The notes beneath the pieces were generated by a model, which was given only the letters and a program-made list of their open reading frames with translations, searched no databases and was not told where the DNA came from. A stretch of DNA of 46,717 bases from contig JBQLZK010000038.1 in the NCBI GenBank assembly GCA_052168235.1, positions 1 to 46,717 on the forward strand. Reading direction: 5' to 3'. This DNA is from Thainema sp. GTDB lineage: Bacteria > Cyanobacteriota > Cyanobacteriia > Phormidesmidales > Phormidesmidaceae. The number at the start of each line of letters is the position of its first letter. Within the stretch, counting starts at the first letter, position 1. The position numbers and the translations under genes were made by a program. Of the stretch, positions 20,258 through 26,400 are shown one piece after another.

Positions 20258-20463
20258 CCTGCGTGCAAGTTTTTAGAGCATTGCGCGTTCTCAGTTACTT
20301 GGGGGACTCCGCTGGTGAGTTCTTACACACTCTTTCAAGGATGGCTACTTCTAAGCCCACCTCCCAGGTTCTTCGCACTCCCCGTTTACAAGCGCCCACT
20401 GCATGGCAGCGTCACGTTTCCTCTCGTACTCGTATGTAGGCTCCACAGTTTAGGGCACGCAGG
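20258..20463 (-). ncRNA. Y-RNA-like unit U1 carrying 23S sarcin-ricin loop and H42-H44 GTPase-associated-centre mimics
   Basis: Terminal stem CCUGCGUGC/GCACGCAGG; AGUACGAGAGGA at 20430-20419; CUGG-GAGGUGGGCUUAGAAGUAGCCAUCCUUGAAAGAGUGUGUAAGAACUCA-CCAG at 20367-20312. Confidence 0.85.
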
Positions 20464-20467
20464 ATAT

Positions 20468-20484
20468 ATACTACAAATACTACA
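20468..20484 (-). promoter_or_regulatory. Tandem TGTAGTAT boxes overlapping the predicted -10 of the U1-NADAR-E2like-ThiF unit
   Basis: ATACTACA at 20468-20475 and 20477-20484, 4 nt from the U1 5' end. Confidence 0.65.
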
Positions 20485-20698
20485 AGCAAAATAATCGCTT
20501 TCCGGATGATTGTTCAAGGGGATTTTGGTAAATGTTCAGTCCCAAATAGGACATGCGCCCTAATAAAGATTACTGGAGTCATTCCCGCCCCAAAGAGACT
20601 GTATAGCAGAAATACACGCGTACTAATCCTGTCTAGAGAGAGACGGCAACGCCCAATCAGATGCGTTACAAGGGAAATGGAAAGATGGGAGATTAAAC

Positions 20699-21082
20699 AT
20701 GCCTGTAAAAGAGCTACGTAAGAGCACCATGATGGCACATTTGCTAGATGCGTTGGATGCCGACCAGGATATTCAACATTATGGAAGACTTGTTTTTGCG
20801 ATGGTCGCGCACCATTTTATGGACGAGGAGGAACTAGTAAGCTATCTACAAAAAGGTGGCCATATCAGTGAAGCAGAGGCTCGATCGCTTTATCAGCAGG
20901 TGCAAGCAAAAGACTACAACCCACCCAAACGCGATCGCATTTTGGAGTGGCAGCAGCAGCAAGAGTTTACCATCTGTCCCAATGCCGATGATCCAGATGC
21001 GTGTAATGTTTACAAGGATCTACAGTTTCCAGATCAAGTGTATGAGCACATTTCAGAATATTATGAGCAGAAAGCAACCTAG
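20699..21082 (+). CDS. Hypothetical protein
   Basis: 127 aa with GGGAG SD; HYGRLVF, YNPP and ICP....D.CNVY motifs. Confidence 0.8.
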   Translation: MPVKELRKSTMMAHLLDALDADQDIQHYGRLVFAMVAHHFMDEEELVSYLQKGGHISEAEARSLYQQVQAKDYNPPKRDRILEWQQQQEFTICPNADDPDACNVYKDLQFPDQVYEHISEYYEQKAT

Positions 21083-21110
21083 TAAAAGCAGCTTGTTTGA
21101 TAGTTTGCCG

Positions 21111-21446
21111 TCATGAGAGAGAGGAGAGTTGCTGTAGGGGATACCTGGCTCTAGTTTTGAGGATATTCAAATTATCCACTTGTGCCAGTAAGCGGTCGAG
21201 TGTTGCAGTTTCGCTAGCGGACAACTGATCTTCTGTATTCTGAGCTAGTAGCGCGCCAAGTTGAGTTTGTTCAGCCGAAGCAAGCTGACTGTTGGCTAAT
21301 GCCTGTAATTCCTCCAAGCTTAAGCCTGTCAAAAGCTCCTCGTCAGATGTAGCAGGACTCACAAGACGGTGATGGGTTTCCAAATCAAGCAAAACCCCGA
21401 CTCGCTCTCCTTGTTGATTTGTTATGTACTGCACAGCTTCAGACAT
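21111..21446 (-). CDS. Hypothetical protein with antitoxin-like N-terminus
   Basis: VQYITNQQGERVGVLLDLE resembles N-termini of small antitoxin-like proteins; no adjacent toxin recognised. Confidence 0.65.
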   Translation of the reverse strand: MSEAVQYITNQQGERVGVLLDLETHHRLVSPATSDEELLTGLSLEELQALANSQLASAEQTQLGALLAQNTEDQLSASETATLDRLLAQVDNLNILKTRARYPLQQLSSLS

Positions 21447-21619
21447 GACTCTCTCTATTCAAGTTAGATTAATTCTGACAGGGTTGAGTAAAAATCACTG
21501 TCACTTCATGGACTTTCTTCATGTCGATTATTTACACAGTTTTTGAAGTGTGGTCGAATTTAGCGTCCCGTGCCAAAATAATACAGATGAATAATTTAGT
21601 TATTGTAAGAGGCTAAGGT

Positions 21620-22627
21620 ATGCGATATGCAGTTTGGAATAATAAAGGTGGAGTTGGTAAAACCTTTCTTTCATTTGTATTAAGCACAGAATTTTCTCAT
21701 GCCTTTCCCAGTAGAAATGTAATTTTAGTAGATATGTGTCCACAAGCCAATGTTTCAGAGATTATTCTCGGTGGCAATGGATCGGGTGGTGCTGAAAAGC
21801 TTAATCAGCTTATTGAAGATAGGAAAACAGTGGGAGGGTATTTTGATGAACGTATTAATTCACCACAAAAGCCTACTGAGACGGAAACAAACTATTTACT
21901 AAAAGTACAAGATTACAACTCTAATGTGCCTCCCAATTTGTGGTTGCTTGCTGGTGATCCAAGCCTCGAAATTCAAGCCCAAGTTATTAGCCAGATTAGT
22001 GCACAAACTTTGCCTGTAGAATCATGGAAGAATGTTCATAACTGGTTAAAAGATCTTGTATTAAGCTGTTCAGACAAATTAGGAGAAGATGTAACAGTTT
22101 TTATTGATTGCAATCCTAGTTTTTCAGCATATACGGAGCTTGCGCTTGCAGCAGCAGAACGAATTATTGTACCTTGTACAAGCGATGATTCTTCAGCTAG
22201 AGCTATCAATAATATCGGTGCACTAATATATGGAGTTGGTGTTGATTCCGCTTATAGTACCGTGAATTTTTCTGGTAAGGCAAAAGTATTTGATATGCCT
22301 TTGCCAGAGCTACATTGCGTTGTTTTAAATCGCTCAACTCAATACAATCAAAAAGCAAGTAAGGCTTTTGCTGCTATGTTTAAGGCTATTCAGGAAAGAG
22401 TGAATGATTTGGGGGAAAAAGAAACATTTGTTGCTTCAGGTGAAGAGGTTAGCTTTCAAGAGATCCCAGATAGTCATTCTGTTACGATTGTTTGTTCCCA
22501 TTTAGGAAAGCCTTTGTACAGTATTACACCAGGTAAATACGAGGTTTACGATACAAATCCTCAAGTGAATTCAGAGCCTATAGATCGATATAAAGAAGCA
22601 GTAGCTGCTTTGCTCTCAAAGATTTAA
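21620..22627 (+). CDS. ParA/Soj-family ATPase (orphan, AT-rich)
   Basis: NNKGGVGKT deviant Walker A, VDMCPQAN, FIDCNPS; no parB nearby. Confidence 0.88.
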   Translation: MRYAVWNNKGGVGKTFLSFVLSTEFSHAFPSRNVILVDMCPQANVSEIILGGNGSGGAEKLNQLIEDRKTVGGYFDERINSPQKPTETETNYLLKVQDYNSNVPPNLWLLAGDPSLEIQAQVISQISAQTLPVESWKNVHNWLKDLVLSCSDKLGEDVTVFIDCNPSFSAYTELALAAAERIIVPCTSDDSSARAINNIGALIYGVGVDSAYSTVNFSGKAKVFDMPLPELHCVVLNRSTQYNQKASKAFAAMFKAIQERVNDLGEKETFVASGEEVSFQEIPDSHSVTIVCSHLGKPLYSITPGKYEVYDTNPQVNSEPIDRYKEAVAALLSKI

Positions 22628-22637
22628 GTATATTCTA

Positions 22638-22676
22638 ATCAAGAGTGCGCTAAGGCAAATATTAGGCACTCTTGAT
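22638..22676. terminator. Hairpin between convergent parA-like and Ro-like genes
   Basis: ATCAAGAGTGC...GCACTCTTGAT. Confidence 0.55.
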
Positions 22677-22680
22677 ATAT

Positions 22681-25609: not shown

Positions 25610-25618
25610 GAAATCTTC

Positions 25619-25819
25619 TTAGCCATAGACAGCTTCTGGACGAATAATTAAATCTCCACTGGGACGGCGATCCACAACATAAGCAGAGAGCCGATTCGCA
25701 TGAACATCCAAATGCTGAGAAATACGCTCTTTTACCGCAATGTCATTCATACCAGTTGTAATTCCCAGTTGAGTTTCGGTCACGTCAAATGAACGACCTT
25801 CAAAGCGAATATGAACCAT
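25619..25819 (-). CDS. Small ubiquitin-like (beta-grasp) protein ending in Gly
   Basis: 66 aa; pattern strand(VHIRF)-strand(SFDV)-helix([12 protein letters not shown])-strand(YVVD)-strand(LIIRP)-EAVYG; SD AGGAGG; fold is inferred. Confidence 0.75.
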
Positions 25820-25845
25820 TGCTGTTACCTCCTTTCATCGAATAG

Positions 25846-25916
25846 GTGAGGCGTGAGGAGCGAGGCGTGAGGCGAGTTTCAGTAACTCAGCATTCAGCAC
25901 TTTCTACTCAGCACTA
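25846..25916. repeat. Heptamer-repeat (STRR-like) tract
   Basis: GTGAGGC-type x4 followed by ACTCAGC-type x4. Confidence 0.65.
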
Positions 25917-26008
25917 AATTTCTGGGTTGCTTCATCTGGGGATGAATTTGGATATAGGAGTGGTGCCCCTAAATCTCAGTTCATCCCTAAAATCAGCAAT
26001 GCCAAGTT

Positions 26009-26085
26009 TGGGGTGACTGACGAGAGTCGAACTCGCTAACACTGGTGTCACAAACCAGCCCCTCCACCGCTTCGGGTTCAGTCAC
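26009..26085 (-). tRNA. trnH: tRNA-His (GUG), CCA encoded, no genomic G-1
   Basis: GTGACTG/CAGTCAC acceptor, C73, CCA; CTGGT-TTGTGAC-ACCAG anticodon arm; GCGAG-TTCGACT-CTCGT T arm. Confidence 0.9.
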
Positions 26086-26087
26086 AG

Positions 26088-26161
26088 TGGATTCTGGTCG
26101 GATTTGAACCGACATCTTTCTGCTTGCAAGGCAGATGCTTTCCCAATTAAGCTACAGACCC
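26088..26161 (-). tRNA. trnA: tRNA-Ala (UGC) with 1-nt bulge in acceptor stem
   Basis: GGGTCTG...TAGCTTAATTGGGAAAGC; TCTGC-CTTGCAA-GCAGA; GTCGG-TTCAAAT-CCGAC; 3' CAGA(A)TCCA. Confidence 0.85.
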
Positions 26162-26171
26162 AAGATGAGGG

Positions 26172-26277
26172 TAATATCAATTCCGTGTATAAGAACCCTG
26201 TTTATTTTTTGTGAAATGCTTACTAAGCAAGCATTTCACAAAAAATAAACAATGGGTTTTTAACCGGATTTTATATA
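26172..26277. repeat. Palindromic MITE-like element (family copy 2, inverted relative to the 10314 copy)
   Basis: GTTTATTTTTTGTGAAATGCTT...AAGCATTTCACAAAAAATAAAC. Confidence 0.75.
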
Positions 26278-26280
26278 AAT

Positions 26281-26400
26281 GTCGTGCAAGTTGAAAAAGC
26301 TGTTGATTCATACACAGGACTTGAACCTGCAATCGACTGTTCTAGAGACAGTTGCCCTACCATTAGGCGAGTATGTAAGCTTTTTCGATCAGGGCACGAC
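26281..26400 (-). ncRNA. Y-RNA-like unit U5 with embedded tRNA-like cloverleaf (anticodon CUA)
   Basis: Stem GUCGUGC/GCACGAC and AAAAAGCU/AGCUUUUU; D arm GCCU-AAUGGU-AGGGC; ACUGU-CUCUAGA-ACAGU; GCAGG-UUCAAGU-CCUGU; acceptor CAUAC/GUAUG continues into the scaffold with no CCA. Confidence 0.85.

Follow-up and report, generated by a model that had tools for sequence, protein, structure and literature searches.

tRNA-like and 23S rRNA-like cargoes on one paired-end handle: candidate Y-type RNAs beside a divergent Ro60-like gene of Thainema sp.

Why should one stretch of a cyanobacterial genome hold five dispersed RNA elements that share the structure formed by their two ends and differ in what lies between them? 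The question is raised by a 46.7-kb stretch of Thainema sp. (GCA_052168235.1, contig JBQLZK010000038.1, positions 1-46,717 of the forward strand; hereafter the window), in which the elements, U1 to U5, are scattered around a gene for a 477-aa protein. The original prediction, made from the DNA letters by themselves, saw in them a common terminal scaffold reminiscent of the Ro-binding helix of Y RNAs, carrying interchangeable cargo. We call this scaffold the handle. The minus strand of 19800-26800 was scrutinised for the unit strings and for structure, and the ten end-strings from which the five units had been delimited were all located (10/10), each occurring once in the window and each on the minus strand. 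The units are as follows.

U1, 20463-20258, minus strand: 206 nt; a handle with a sarcin-ricin-loop-like hairpin and a mimic of the GTPase-associated centre (GAC), helices H42-H44
U2, 24433-24246 by its end-strings (188 nt; feature entry 24242..24437), minus strand: a handle with an outer helix of 10 bp; its cargo is variable
U3, 24604-24458, minus strand: 147 nt; a handle with a tRNA-like cloverleaf, anticodon UUG
U4, 25609-25428, minus strand: 182 nt; a handle whose cargo opens with a copy of 23S rRNA helices H69 (3' strand) to H70
U5, 26400-26281 by its end-strings (120 nt; feature entry 26280..26401), minus strand: a handle with a tRNA-like cloverleaf, anticodon CUA

That these five units share a terminal scaffold is confirmed well past chance, and three independent scans concur on it. 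A scan of the whole window for the motifs plus pairing returned U1-U5 on the minus strand, together with one cross-pair between the 5' end of U3 and the 3' end of U2, and nothing on the plus strand. An nhmmer profile of the 5' half of the handle gave five window matches, all on the minus strand. A covariance model, the check that the original prediction had named, was built from 14 units without U1, U2 and U4; this model, R1, matched the window exactly five times, at U1-U5 (E = 4e-18 to 2e-8), with no further match on either strand up to E = 10. The units outside its training set were recovered at 44 bits (U1, 20259-20462, E 1.6e-9), 59.5 bits (U2, E 1e-13) and 39.7 bits (U4, E 2.2e-8), and U3 and U5 scored 69.3 and 75.8 bits.

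The outer helix of the handle, 7-12 bp long, is made by the RNA's own 5' and 3' ends. It leads into a loop that is asymmetric, with 5'-CCYRA facing 3'-ACUU (RA is able to pair with UU), and then into an inner helix topped by RAAGC/GCUUY; the cargo exits at a junction whose 5' strand is N-UACAYAC and whose 3' strand is an A-rich CAAY. CCYRA, ACUU and UACAYAC had been described as invariant. Over 319 related units, introduced below, they are near-invariant rather than absolutely so: CCYRA is kept in 319, 318, 311, 310 and 319 units from its first C to its A, ACUU in 318, 319, 319 and 298 (its last U being C in 21), and the positions of UACAYAC in 260-319. The description of UACAYAC as a linker fails, because this element forms the 5' strand of a tRNA-like acceptor stem in U3 and U5 and its last bases enter the stem of the sarcin-ricin-like hairpin in U1; it is no passive linker.

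Covariation was counted on 21 named pairs of the handle after MAFFT alignment of 150 non-identical units; these were a random draw from the 234 distinct units of at most 250 nt, in which the five window units were always included. The controls were 500 column shuffles and partners slid by 1-3 columns. In the alignment 89.4% of cells are paired, as against 75.7% in the shuffles and 33-47% with slid partners, and the covariation score is 0.455 as against 0.217; none of the 500 shuffles reached the observed value in either measure. Two-sided change is seen in 16 of the 21 pairs. When the two halves of the outer helix were found independently, they formed a mean of 8.9 contiguous bp with their own partners and 5.3 with swapped ones, and this helix occurs in 104 distinct versions, with at least four contiguous pairs in 315 of the 319 units. 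The compensatory change that had been claimed for the outer pairs is thus borne out, and it reaches even the pair that closes the loop, which is C-G in 136 and U-A in 7 of the 150 aligned units.

The related units come from 80 loci, each extending about 10 kb to either side (contig permitting) of an orthologue of the gene for the 477-aa protein, which we call the Ro-like gene; one genome was taken per species, and the named records are mostly cyanobacteria. They were searched with two sequence-only nhmmer profiles, one for each half of the handle (5' and 3'), made from alignment A1, at a cut-off of E <= 0.01. The 5' profile gave 319 matches, all on the strand of the protein gene; across 1.45 Mb the opposite strand gave none. 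At least one handle copy occurs in 79 of the 80 loci, the sole exception being a 3.8-kb contig, and a locus typically holds 3-6 copies and up to six to seven paralogues. With the window included there are 324 5' halves, of which 319 have a 3' half 55-450 nt downstream; all 324 lie between -5433 and +3755 of the Ro-like gene, and none in 668,593 bases of outer flank. R1 gave 362 matches in the loci at E <= 0.01, and every one of the 300 matches listed is on the protein strand. Sorted by cargo and outer helix, the 319 units make up six orthologous types, arranged in a conserved order.

Type A: tRNA-like, with an anticodon loop that is mainly CUCUAAA; resembles U5
Type B: H69-71-like; U4, with 29 orthologous units
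Type C: permuted tRNA-like; 40 units in related loci and none in the window
Type D: tRNA-like; its anticodon loop is hypervariable; U3
Type E: cargo short or variable, the unit's end lying a median of 60 nt ahead of the Ro-like ATG; U2, 70 loci
Type F: sarcin-ricin loop (SRL) plus GAC, always downstream of the Ro-like gene; U1, 41 loci

The 53 loci with full flanks hold 38 A, 25 B, 29 C, 48 D, 48 E and 26 F units. A tblastn search of phage records gave one homologue of the protein, 47% identical, in an uncultured 595-kb phage. Its 25-kb region carries nine R1 handles (E = 9e-12 to 0.03), on the protein strand and 0.7-3.9 kb upstream, in a co-varied version of the handle, CGUCC/CC-RA ... UUACAAAC ... 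ACUU/GGACG, that reads GUCC-CCGA...ACUUGGAC at the loop. Two of these handles enclose tRNAs recognised by Rfam, and one 315-nt unit opens with GACGGUCAUAAGGUAGCGAG, which is H69/H70-like. The same order of genes is kept for homologues of three partners discussed below, a 66-aa protein (32% identical), a 275-aa protein (34%) and ThiF (50%). Because of this phage copy, it appears that handle, protein set and domain IV mimic have stayed together across a wide span of evolution, and also in a virus.

What, then, is the protein to which the handle is linked?

Ro-like gene, 22681..24114, minus strand: a 477-aa divergent Ro60/TROVE plus vWA protein, the presumed binder of the handle

This protein has 3096 relatives at E <= 1e-3, the 120 best of which are 80-96% identical, and its family forms 1020 clusters at 50% identity. 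NCBIfam gave no match. A single-sequence phmmer search of the PDB gave a weak, collinear match to a 'TROVE domain-containing protein' (E = 0.018), and a profile of 45 homologues matched human Ro60 (8.4e-16), the TROVE protein of Thermus phage phiLo (1e-14), Xenopus Ro (2.8e-12) and D. radiodurans Rsr (1.3e-7). The AlphaFold (AF2) model is confident (predicted local distance difference test, pLDDT, 91.4; predicted template-modelling score, pTM, 0.83), with residues 8-288 helical and an alpha/beta domain after them. The top 12 Foldseek matches in the PDB are all Ro60, Rsr or TROVE chains aligned over their full length (template-modelling score 0.62-0.72), so the layout agrees with the HEAT-repeat ring closed by a vWA domain that defines Ro60. 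The MIDAS (metal-ion-dependent adhesion site) residues of that domain, D300, S302, S304, T362 and D386 (DxSxS...T...D), are invariant in the 45 sequences. Because of the profile matches, the confident fold and the invariant MIDAS residues, the protein is a divergent Ro60 orthologue, as its earlier description as TROVE-like had anticipated, and we infer that the handle is the docking site for this ring.

The cargoes were not named in the original prediction, and it is in them that the units differ most. Two of the five are tRNA-like. U5 carries a 72-nt cloverleaf (Rfam tRNA, 26306-26377, 50.6 bits with a gathering score of 29) to which ARAGORN assigns the anticodon CUA. In U3, ARAGORN calls a 94-nt tRNA-Gln at 24485-24578 with the anticodon UUG; the Rfam tRNA match is partial (24.8 bits, under the gathering score), and an additional hairpin lies in the T loop at 24505-24530. 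Both cloverleaves are unpermuted and are tethered to the handle by the acceptor stem, so that the anticodon arm would be exposed and the acceptor end blocked, the reverse of the arrangement in YrlA. Neither has a free acceptor end: the strands run on into the handle, no CCA is present and A2 faces A71 in a mismatch. In the consensus of the A-type units of Nostocales the acceptor stem is not predicted at all. The D-type anticodon loop is hypervariable, with at least 22 variants among 52 scored, on a conserved body.

We also considered whether A- and D-type units might be precursors of working tRNAs, for example a CUA amber suppressor; this is disfavoured by the conserved A-A mismatch in the acceptor stem and by the missing free end. 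As a separate observation, the extra T-loop hairpin (GGUACC...GAAGCAAGCUAC) recurs in tRNA-like cargoes of different unit types, among them L013:9266-9413, L007:6004-6169, L042:4857-5022 and L025:9476-9635 in the related loci.

Type C has a different plan. Its fold runs from the handle through a 4-bp stem, a V hairpin, a T arm and a closed 7-bp acceptor hairpin to a D arm, and for one example, L059:8432-8572, the minimum free energy fold has z = -4.8. The permuted tRNA-like domain of YrlA RNAs, found in none of the five window units (0/5), is present in the 40 C units of the related loci.

The cargoes of U1 and U4 resemble 23S rRNA in the following segments.

Sarcin-ricin loop core in U1, 20419..20430, minus strand: AGUACGAGAGGA, identical to E. 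coli 23S 2654-2665 (12/12 nt)
L11/thiostrepton-domain mimic in U1 (top of H42, H43 and H44), 20312..20367, minus strand: matched by Rfam LSU_rRNA_bacteria
23S copy in U4, 25551..25576, minus strand: 25/26 nt identical to E. coli 23S 1916-1941 (3' strand of H69 plus H70)

A blastn comparison with the E. coli rrnH locus revealed the identity of AGUACGAGAGGA. Of 41 F-type units, 39 retain the 12-mer unchanged, and the stem that flanks it varies in a compensatory way (UACU/AGUA and UACG/CGUG). The second element of U1, 56 nt long, matches positions 1093-1148 of LSU_rRNA_bacteria without a single non-standard pair (53.1 bits, gathering score 50; 47.9 bits in another Rfam search), and the wider similarity amounts to 72% identity to E. 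coli 23S 1036-1114; LSU matches of the same type recur in three related loci (L005, L042 and L021). The 26-nt match of U4 has a blastn E of 7e-6, and its local alignment score was matched by none of 500 shuffles. In the U4 cargo, ACGGUC near the 5' end pairs with GACCGU near the 3' end, and this pairing covaries in the orthologues, which suggests that U4 may be a permuted miniature domain IV opened at the H69 loop. For the cargo of U2, neither E. coli 16S nor 23S rRNA gave a significant match (best E about 3-8), and Rfam gave no match. A constant handle with a variable payload, as had been proposed, is therefore an apt description, the payloads being tRNA-like, SRL plus GAC, H69/H70 and variable.

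How do these RNAs compare with the known Y RNAs? The ends of Y RNAs pair into a long terminal stem, as do those of the units here, Y RNAs are encoded beside a Ro60 orthologue, as are the 324 handle matches (-5.4 to +3.8 kb), and CCYRA opposite ACUU makes a conserved asymmetric loop analogous to the bulged helix of Y RNAs; the handle presumably also resembles the 3' strand of vertebrate Y RNAs. YrlA-type Y RNAs likewise lie beside a Ro60 orthologue and have a paired-end stem with a conserved asymmetric element, and they follow the same modular plan of a Ro-binding stem plus an effector module, with a tRNA mimic as the module (passages of PMC4201824 and 10.1101/312249). Type C ties the handle to the Y RNA family, because its succession of T arm, closed acceptor and D arm is the architecture published for YrlA in those passages. 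There are also differences. YrlA has the motif GNCGAAN0-1G where this handle has CCYRA//ACUU; its tRNA-like domain is permuted and has no anticodon loop, whereas the tRNA-like modules of the window are unpermuted, attached by the acceptor and equipped with a full anticodon arm; and the family described here adds the 23S mimics (SRL plus GAC, and H69/H70), up to six to seven paralogues per locus and a Ro-like protein too divergent for the Pfam TROVE model. Y RNAs in the full texts searched carry tRNA-like or simple modules only, and no Y RNA with an rRNA-like cargo or an acceptor-tethered tRNA mimic was found in those texts; cyanobacterial YrlA candidates are listed in the supplement of PMC4201824.

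Other known systems share parts of this arrangement. The Ro60 of Thermus phage phiLo (PMC12135203; PDB 9KOP, 9L5Y) is likewise a divergent phage protein with Y-like RNAs just upstream, and its TROVE structure is among the best PDB matches to the window protein; its Yrl1 and Yrl2 were identified through a CGAA motif and bind PNPase, and the passages of PMC12135203 that describe them do not mention rRNA-like modules. The Salmonella rsr-yrlBA-rtcBA operon has in common a Ro orthologue, Y RNAs that are polycistronic, RtcB and a tie to damage of translation RNAs, and there YrlA's tRNA-like domain has been proposed as a competitive inhibitor of an anticodon nuclease; that operon is regulated by RtcR and sigma-54, whereas here the signals are apparently TrcR boxes (all from parts of PMC7790460). 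Its partner is RtcB, and the partners here are a 66-aa Gly-terminal protein, ThiF/E1 and two proteins of unassigned family. Finally, the leaders of ribosomal-protein operons that mimic rRNA, in partial accounts of them, also hold a short copy of a 23S or 16S protein-binding site that competes for its ligand, and they are cis-acting mRNA elements for one protein, whereas here a common handle is used and U1 merges an SRL (domain VI) with H42-44 (domain II). On these grounds we file the five units as a modular variant of bacterial Y RNAs and Ro60 ribonucleoproteins (RNPs), not as a wholly new category, and we consider it likely that U1-U5 are Ro-associated Y-type RNAs.

The signals that might control these RNAs had also gone unnoticed in the original prediction. 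They consist of TGTAGTAT boxes and two hairpins.

Two TGTAGTAT boxes, 20468..20484, minus strand: 5-20 nt upstream of U1, overlapping a TAGTAT -10 element
Three TGTAGTAT boxes, 26557..26603, minus strand: upstream of the tRNA-Trp/U5 transcription unit
One TGTAGTAT box, 27546-27553, plus strand: just before the DIP1984-RtcB genes
Long near-perfect hairpin, 20178..20230, no strand assigned: just 3' of U1, probably a terminator
Long hairpin, 26201..26249, no strand assigned: 3' of U5, probably a terminator

The window has six TGTAGTAT boxes where 0.74 would be expected. According to passages of PMC10272220, TrcR is a ribbon-helix-helix repressor that binds TGTAGTAT overlapping the TAGTAT -10 of a long tRNA (trn) operon and further represses rtcB and rsgA; the trn operon is induced by antibiotics that target translation (passages of PMC8421152). 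Predicted operators of this kind stand upstream of U1 and of tRNA-Trp/U5. In the related loci a box lies 13-27 nt upstream of 28 of 38 F-type units, and there is a concentration of boxes 2-3 kb upstream of the Ro-like gene. The likeness to the cyanobacterial trn operon and TrcR regulon (PMC8421152 and PMC10272220, in part) extends to the operator over the TAGTAT -10, to rtcB and rsgA in the window, and to the same-strand tRNA array that in some loci lies directly upstream of the cassette. In the text searched, both papers deal with tRNAs and protein genes alone: the terms vWA, Ro60, 'Y RNA' and 'tRNA-like' are all absent from that of PMC8421152, and the TrcR targets listed in that of PMC10272220 include no vWA or ThiF gene. 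One stress-controlled promoter may thus head the cassette, often continuous with a tRNA array, with a separate one for the F unit. The U1 hairpin surfaced in Rfam as spurious miRNA-like matches; a simple promoter and terminator scan gave counts equal to those of shuffles and did not call the 20178..20230 hairpin.

Several further observations concern this regulon. The genes behind the plus-strand box encode a DIP1984/DUF6847-family protein (27584-28042, plus strand) and an RtcB RNA ligase (28656-29837, plus strand), which looks intein-less because its 810 bits to the NCBIfam 'intein-containing RtcB' model fall under the cut-off, and an RsgA GTPase gene lies at 5476-6576; with the TGTAGTAT box at DIP1984-RtcB and the RsgA gene, the window holds several published members of the TrcR regulon. 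The phage locus (L082) has two TGTAGTAT boxes, at 7306 and 21418, on the same strand.

The best explanation of the locus as a whole, which we hold with about even confidence, is that U1-U5 are Y-type RNAs on a Ro-like ring and act as target mimics of the RNAs of translation. The handle would dock on the neighbouring Ro60/TROVE-vWA ring, and each handle presents a different mimic of translation-apparatus RNA, U2 contributing a variable hairpin in the putative leader of the Ro-like gene; in U1 the SRL and the H42-H44 L11 stalk would together constitute the binding site of translational GTPases. The RNAs would be made from TrcR-repressed promoters and, because of that repression, would be induced by translational stress, U1 from its own promoter and the others by excision from a longer transcript or tRNA array, with the handle defining and protecting the RNA ends. 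The RNPs may then compete with genuine tRNA and 23S rRNA for whatever binds or damages these sites: anticodon nucleases, for example, ribonucleases that act on the SRL or H70, toxins that modify H44, and perhaps GTPases or drugs. The Ro-like ring may hold, stabilise or triage the mimic.

The decoy function of these RNPs is the more tentative part of this explanation, and our confidence in it falls somewhat short of even. It is suggested because every cargo class corresponds to a documented toxin target, because the D-type anticodon loop is hypervariable and because the cassette occurs in a phage. VapC20 cleaves the sarcin-ricin loop, and MazF-mt6 and MazF-mt3 cleave helix/loop 70 (passages of PMC5408214); Tre23 ADP-ribosylates H44 within a minimal region of 1043-1123 and so impairs EF-G (passages of PMC8661411); and defence nucleases cut anticodon loops, which phage tRNAs evade by mutations in the loop (abstract of PMC10264068).

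A number of results weigh against this explanation. The Y-RNA likeness seen by the original prediction stands as regards the paired-end handle, the exchangeable cargo and the Ro60-homologue neighbour; it does not extend to the motifs, since neither the vertebrate Ro-site GGUCCGA (quoted in PMC4201824) nor the YrlA motif of that paper occurs in any of the 319 units. The comparison with Rfam models that had been proposed likewise gave no Y-type family at E <= 10 in 19800-26900, in U1, in U4 or in one 78-nt unit; at gathering score the Rfam matches are tRNA and LSU rRNA only. For the 477-aa protein the Pfam TROVE model gives no match, and Pfam returns only a weak, sub-threshold vWA. The 66-aa, 243-aa or 275-aa protein of the cassette could bind the handle instead. 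The loci were chosen through the protein, and therefore the counts show linkage where the protein is present and not absence elsewhere; handle copies in other parts of those genomes are possible. Beyond its 26 nt, the collinear, circularly permuted likeness of U4 to 23S 1829-1844 and 1893-1915 is not significant (reached by 188 and 60 of 500 shuffles, respectively), and U4 and its orthologues have GUUCGA or AUUCGA in place of the MazF-mt6 site UUCCU, so U4 is no literal copy of that toxin's substrate. None of 201 B, C, D and E units has a TGTAGTAT box within 120 nt. RtcB, finally, was rejected as a core partner, because it is a neighbour in only 1 of the 80 loci.

The proteins that do accompany the handle were identified with tblastn searches of the 80 loci with the window proteins, counting neighbours on the same strand.

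66-aa protein, 25619..25819, minus strand: C terminus ...RPEAVYG; 70/80 loci
243-aa cassette protein, 24609..25340, minus strand: family unassigned; 53/80 loci
275-aa protein, 18865-19692, minus strand: family unassigned, a downstream partner; 63/80 loci
ThiF/E1-like adenylyltransferase, 18230-18868, minus strand: Pfam ThiF 1.4e-25, also a downstream partner; 60/80 loci

The C-terminal YG of the 66-aa protein is invariant in 10/10 aligned sequences, and because its RPEAVYG end is encoded beside a ThiF-type E1, we suspect that it may be a ubiquitin-like carrier. The 66-aa, 243-aa and 275-aa proteins have no match in Pfam, NCBIfam or PDB profiles, and an Atlas search with the latter two yielded no named lead. 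A NADAR gene is a neighbour in 6 of the 80 loci and a ParA-like gene in none, which places both outside the cassette.

These partners have a place in a second explanation, which we think unlikely: the handle RNAs would be tethers or adaptors, each cargo recruiting to the Ro-like ring the proteins that usually recognise that tRNA or rRNA element (L11/L10, EF-G, tRNA enzymes, domain IV binders), which the vWA domain would link to the ubiquitin-like protein and the ThiF-type E1 for modification, degradation or quality control. The Y RNA of D. radiodurans reportedly tethers Rsr to PNPase in a comparable way. The 66-aa protein with its C-terminal Gly, the ThiF/E1 and a Ro-like protein with an intact MIDAS are indeed kept from cyanobacteria to phage, Y RNAs have been described as modular, a Ro-binding stem plus an effector module (10.1101/312249 and PMC4201824, in part), and U1 joins two rRNA elements that bind EF-G and EF-Tu (passages of PMC8661411). 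However, the 66-aa protein has no PDB or Pfam match that would point to a ubiquitin-like fold, the model of the 275-aa protein reaches a pLDDT of only 40.4, no PNPase or other effector is encoded nearby, and hypervariable anticodon loops are not what a conserved recruitment site would be expected to show.

The tRNA genes next to U5 bear on a third explanation.

tRNA-Trp(CCA), 26402..26474, minus strand: abuts the 5' end of U5
tRNA-Ala, 26089-26161, minus strand: in the same small tRNA array as tRNA-Trp
Further tRNA, 26012-26085, minus strand: Rfam 47.6 bits; ARAGORN makes no call

The handle might be mainly a maturation or stability element, like the leader-trailer stems of rRNA, cut or protected by a general RNase or another cassette protein rather than by the Ro-like protein, whereby structured RNAs would be excised from tRNA arrays and polycistronic transcripts. 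Most units must indeed be excised, because they lack a TrcR box of their own and lie between protein genes on one strand, U5 abuts tRNA-Trp, and 9 of 81 sources have at least five free-standing tRNA genes upstream of the cassette on the protein strand (free-standing tRNA genes on that strand occur in 17 of the 81, and at least 15 of them in seven). A processing stem would have no need of the near-invariant loop residues, yet these are kept as far as the phage with its 47%-identical protein, and the architecture and the YrlA-type module favour Ro binding. As the main role of the handle we regard processing as distinctly improbable, although processing and Ro binding are not mutually exclusive.

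Some details of these arrays may be added. By eye, the anticodon loop of the tRNA at 26012-26085 is UUUGUGA (GUG, His-like), and with tRNA-Trp and tRNA-Ala it makes up a reduced array. Three loci of Leptolyngbya or Oscillatoria type (L005 4500-8800, L042 4200-8650 and L037 1160-4800) have 21-32 tRNA genes arrayed on the same strand immediately upstream of the cassette, and a further array of at least 12 is found in the phage locus at 21200-24840, 8-11 kb downstream of the Ro-like gene. The second of the three loci sits on a 288-kb plasmid, and a 1.2-Mb plasmid of Kovacikia likewise bears the Ro-like gene. In Calothrix brevissima a HEARO (HNH endonuclease-associated) RNA (L021 3510-3727, 132.9 bits) lies a few kb upstream of the cassette.

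The position of U2, 128 nt upstream of the Ro-like ATG, makes it possible that this unit is a leader of the Ro-like gene, and a fourth explanation, to which we give slightly less credence again, generalises this: some units, above all U2 (type E) and U1 (type F), would not be free RNAs but 5' leaders with which the Ro-like protein regulates its own cassette. The 70 E units, with their median distance of 60 nt from the ATG and a cargo of 74-196 nt that appears dispensable, suit such a role, as do the promoter boxes that F units bear for downstream genes. In the window, however, a long hairpin follows U1 and the NADAR gene separates it from the 275-aa gene, and nothing in this reading would account for the conserved mimicry of rRNA and tRNA by the other units. 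Finally, decayed remnants of tRNA arrays, or a functionless mobile repeat, could be suspected from the two tRNA-like cargoes, from the loci with 21-32 tRNA genes and from the HEARO/IS-related RNA and HNH genes around such arrays (passages of PMC8421152), but the strict bias of strand and position, six unit types that are syntenic across cyanobacterial orders, the covariation and phage retention of the handle, and rRNA-like cargoes that keep every base pair of the Rfam LSU model make this very improbable.

The remaining genes of the neighbourhood are side observations. Between the Ro-like gene and U1 lie a ParA-like ATPase gene (21620-22627, plus strand) and two small ORFs (20699-21082, plus strand; 21111-21446, minus strand), which resemble an insertion into the cassette because they are absent from all 80 related loci. 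The NADAR gene (19685-20125, minus strand) stands between U1 and the 275-aa/ThiF pair, and its product matches the NCBIfam 'NADAR family anti-phage protein' at 6.5e-20, under the cut-off. A MerR regulator at 38973-40274 (plus strand) is fused to TipAS-like (thiopeptide antibiotic-recognition) and Clp_N domains; it is possible that this protein is relevant to the mimic of the thiostrepton-binding L11 stalk in U1.

Going further than the explanation of the handle RNAs as target mimics on a Ro-like ring, one may imagine the cassette as a 'ribosome-in-pieces' surveillance device of cyanobacteria and huge phages, although we would call this a long shot. Sentinel copies of the RNA sites under most frequent attack in conflicts (anticodon loops, the SRL, H44 of the L11 stalk and H69/H70) would be held on the Ro-like ring, their cleavage, modification or occupancy would be read through the vWA/MIDAS domain, and the signal would pass to the ubiquitin-like protein and the ThiF-type E1, marking the attacker or a translation factor. 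If true, the system would sense attacks rather than only absorb them, and would be an RNA-mimic sensor of innate immunity or counter-defence.

To our knowledge, the roles of bacterial Ro60 and Y RNAs are largely open, and tRNA-like effector modules are the only ones to have been described. One handle with swappable copies of a tRNA anticodon arm, of the SRL plus L11 stalk and of a domain IV segment would give the Y RNA family concrete ligands, in a set that is apparently wired to a known repressor of the translational stress response and conserved from cyanobacteria to a 595-kb phage. It suggests that conflicts over translation draw on mimicry of rRNA targets as well as of tRNA. A likely role is thereby given to a 'hypothetical vWA protein' of high conservation, and the handle itself would be a natural modular scaffold for the display of structured RNAs.

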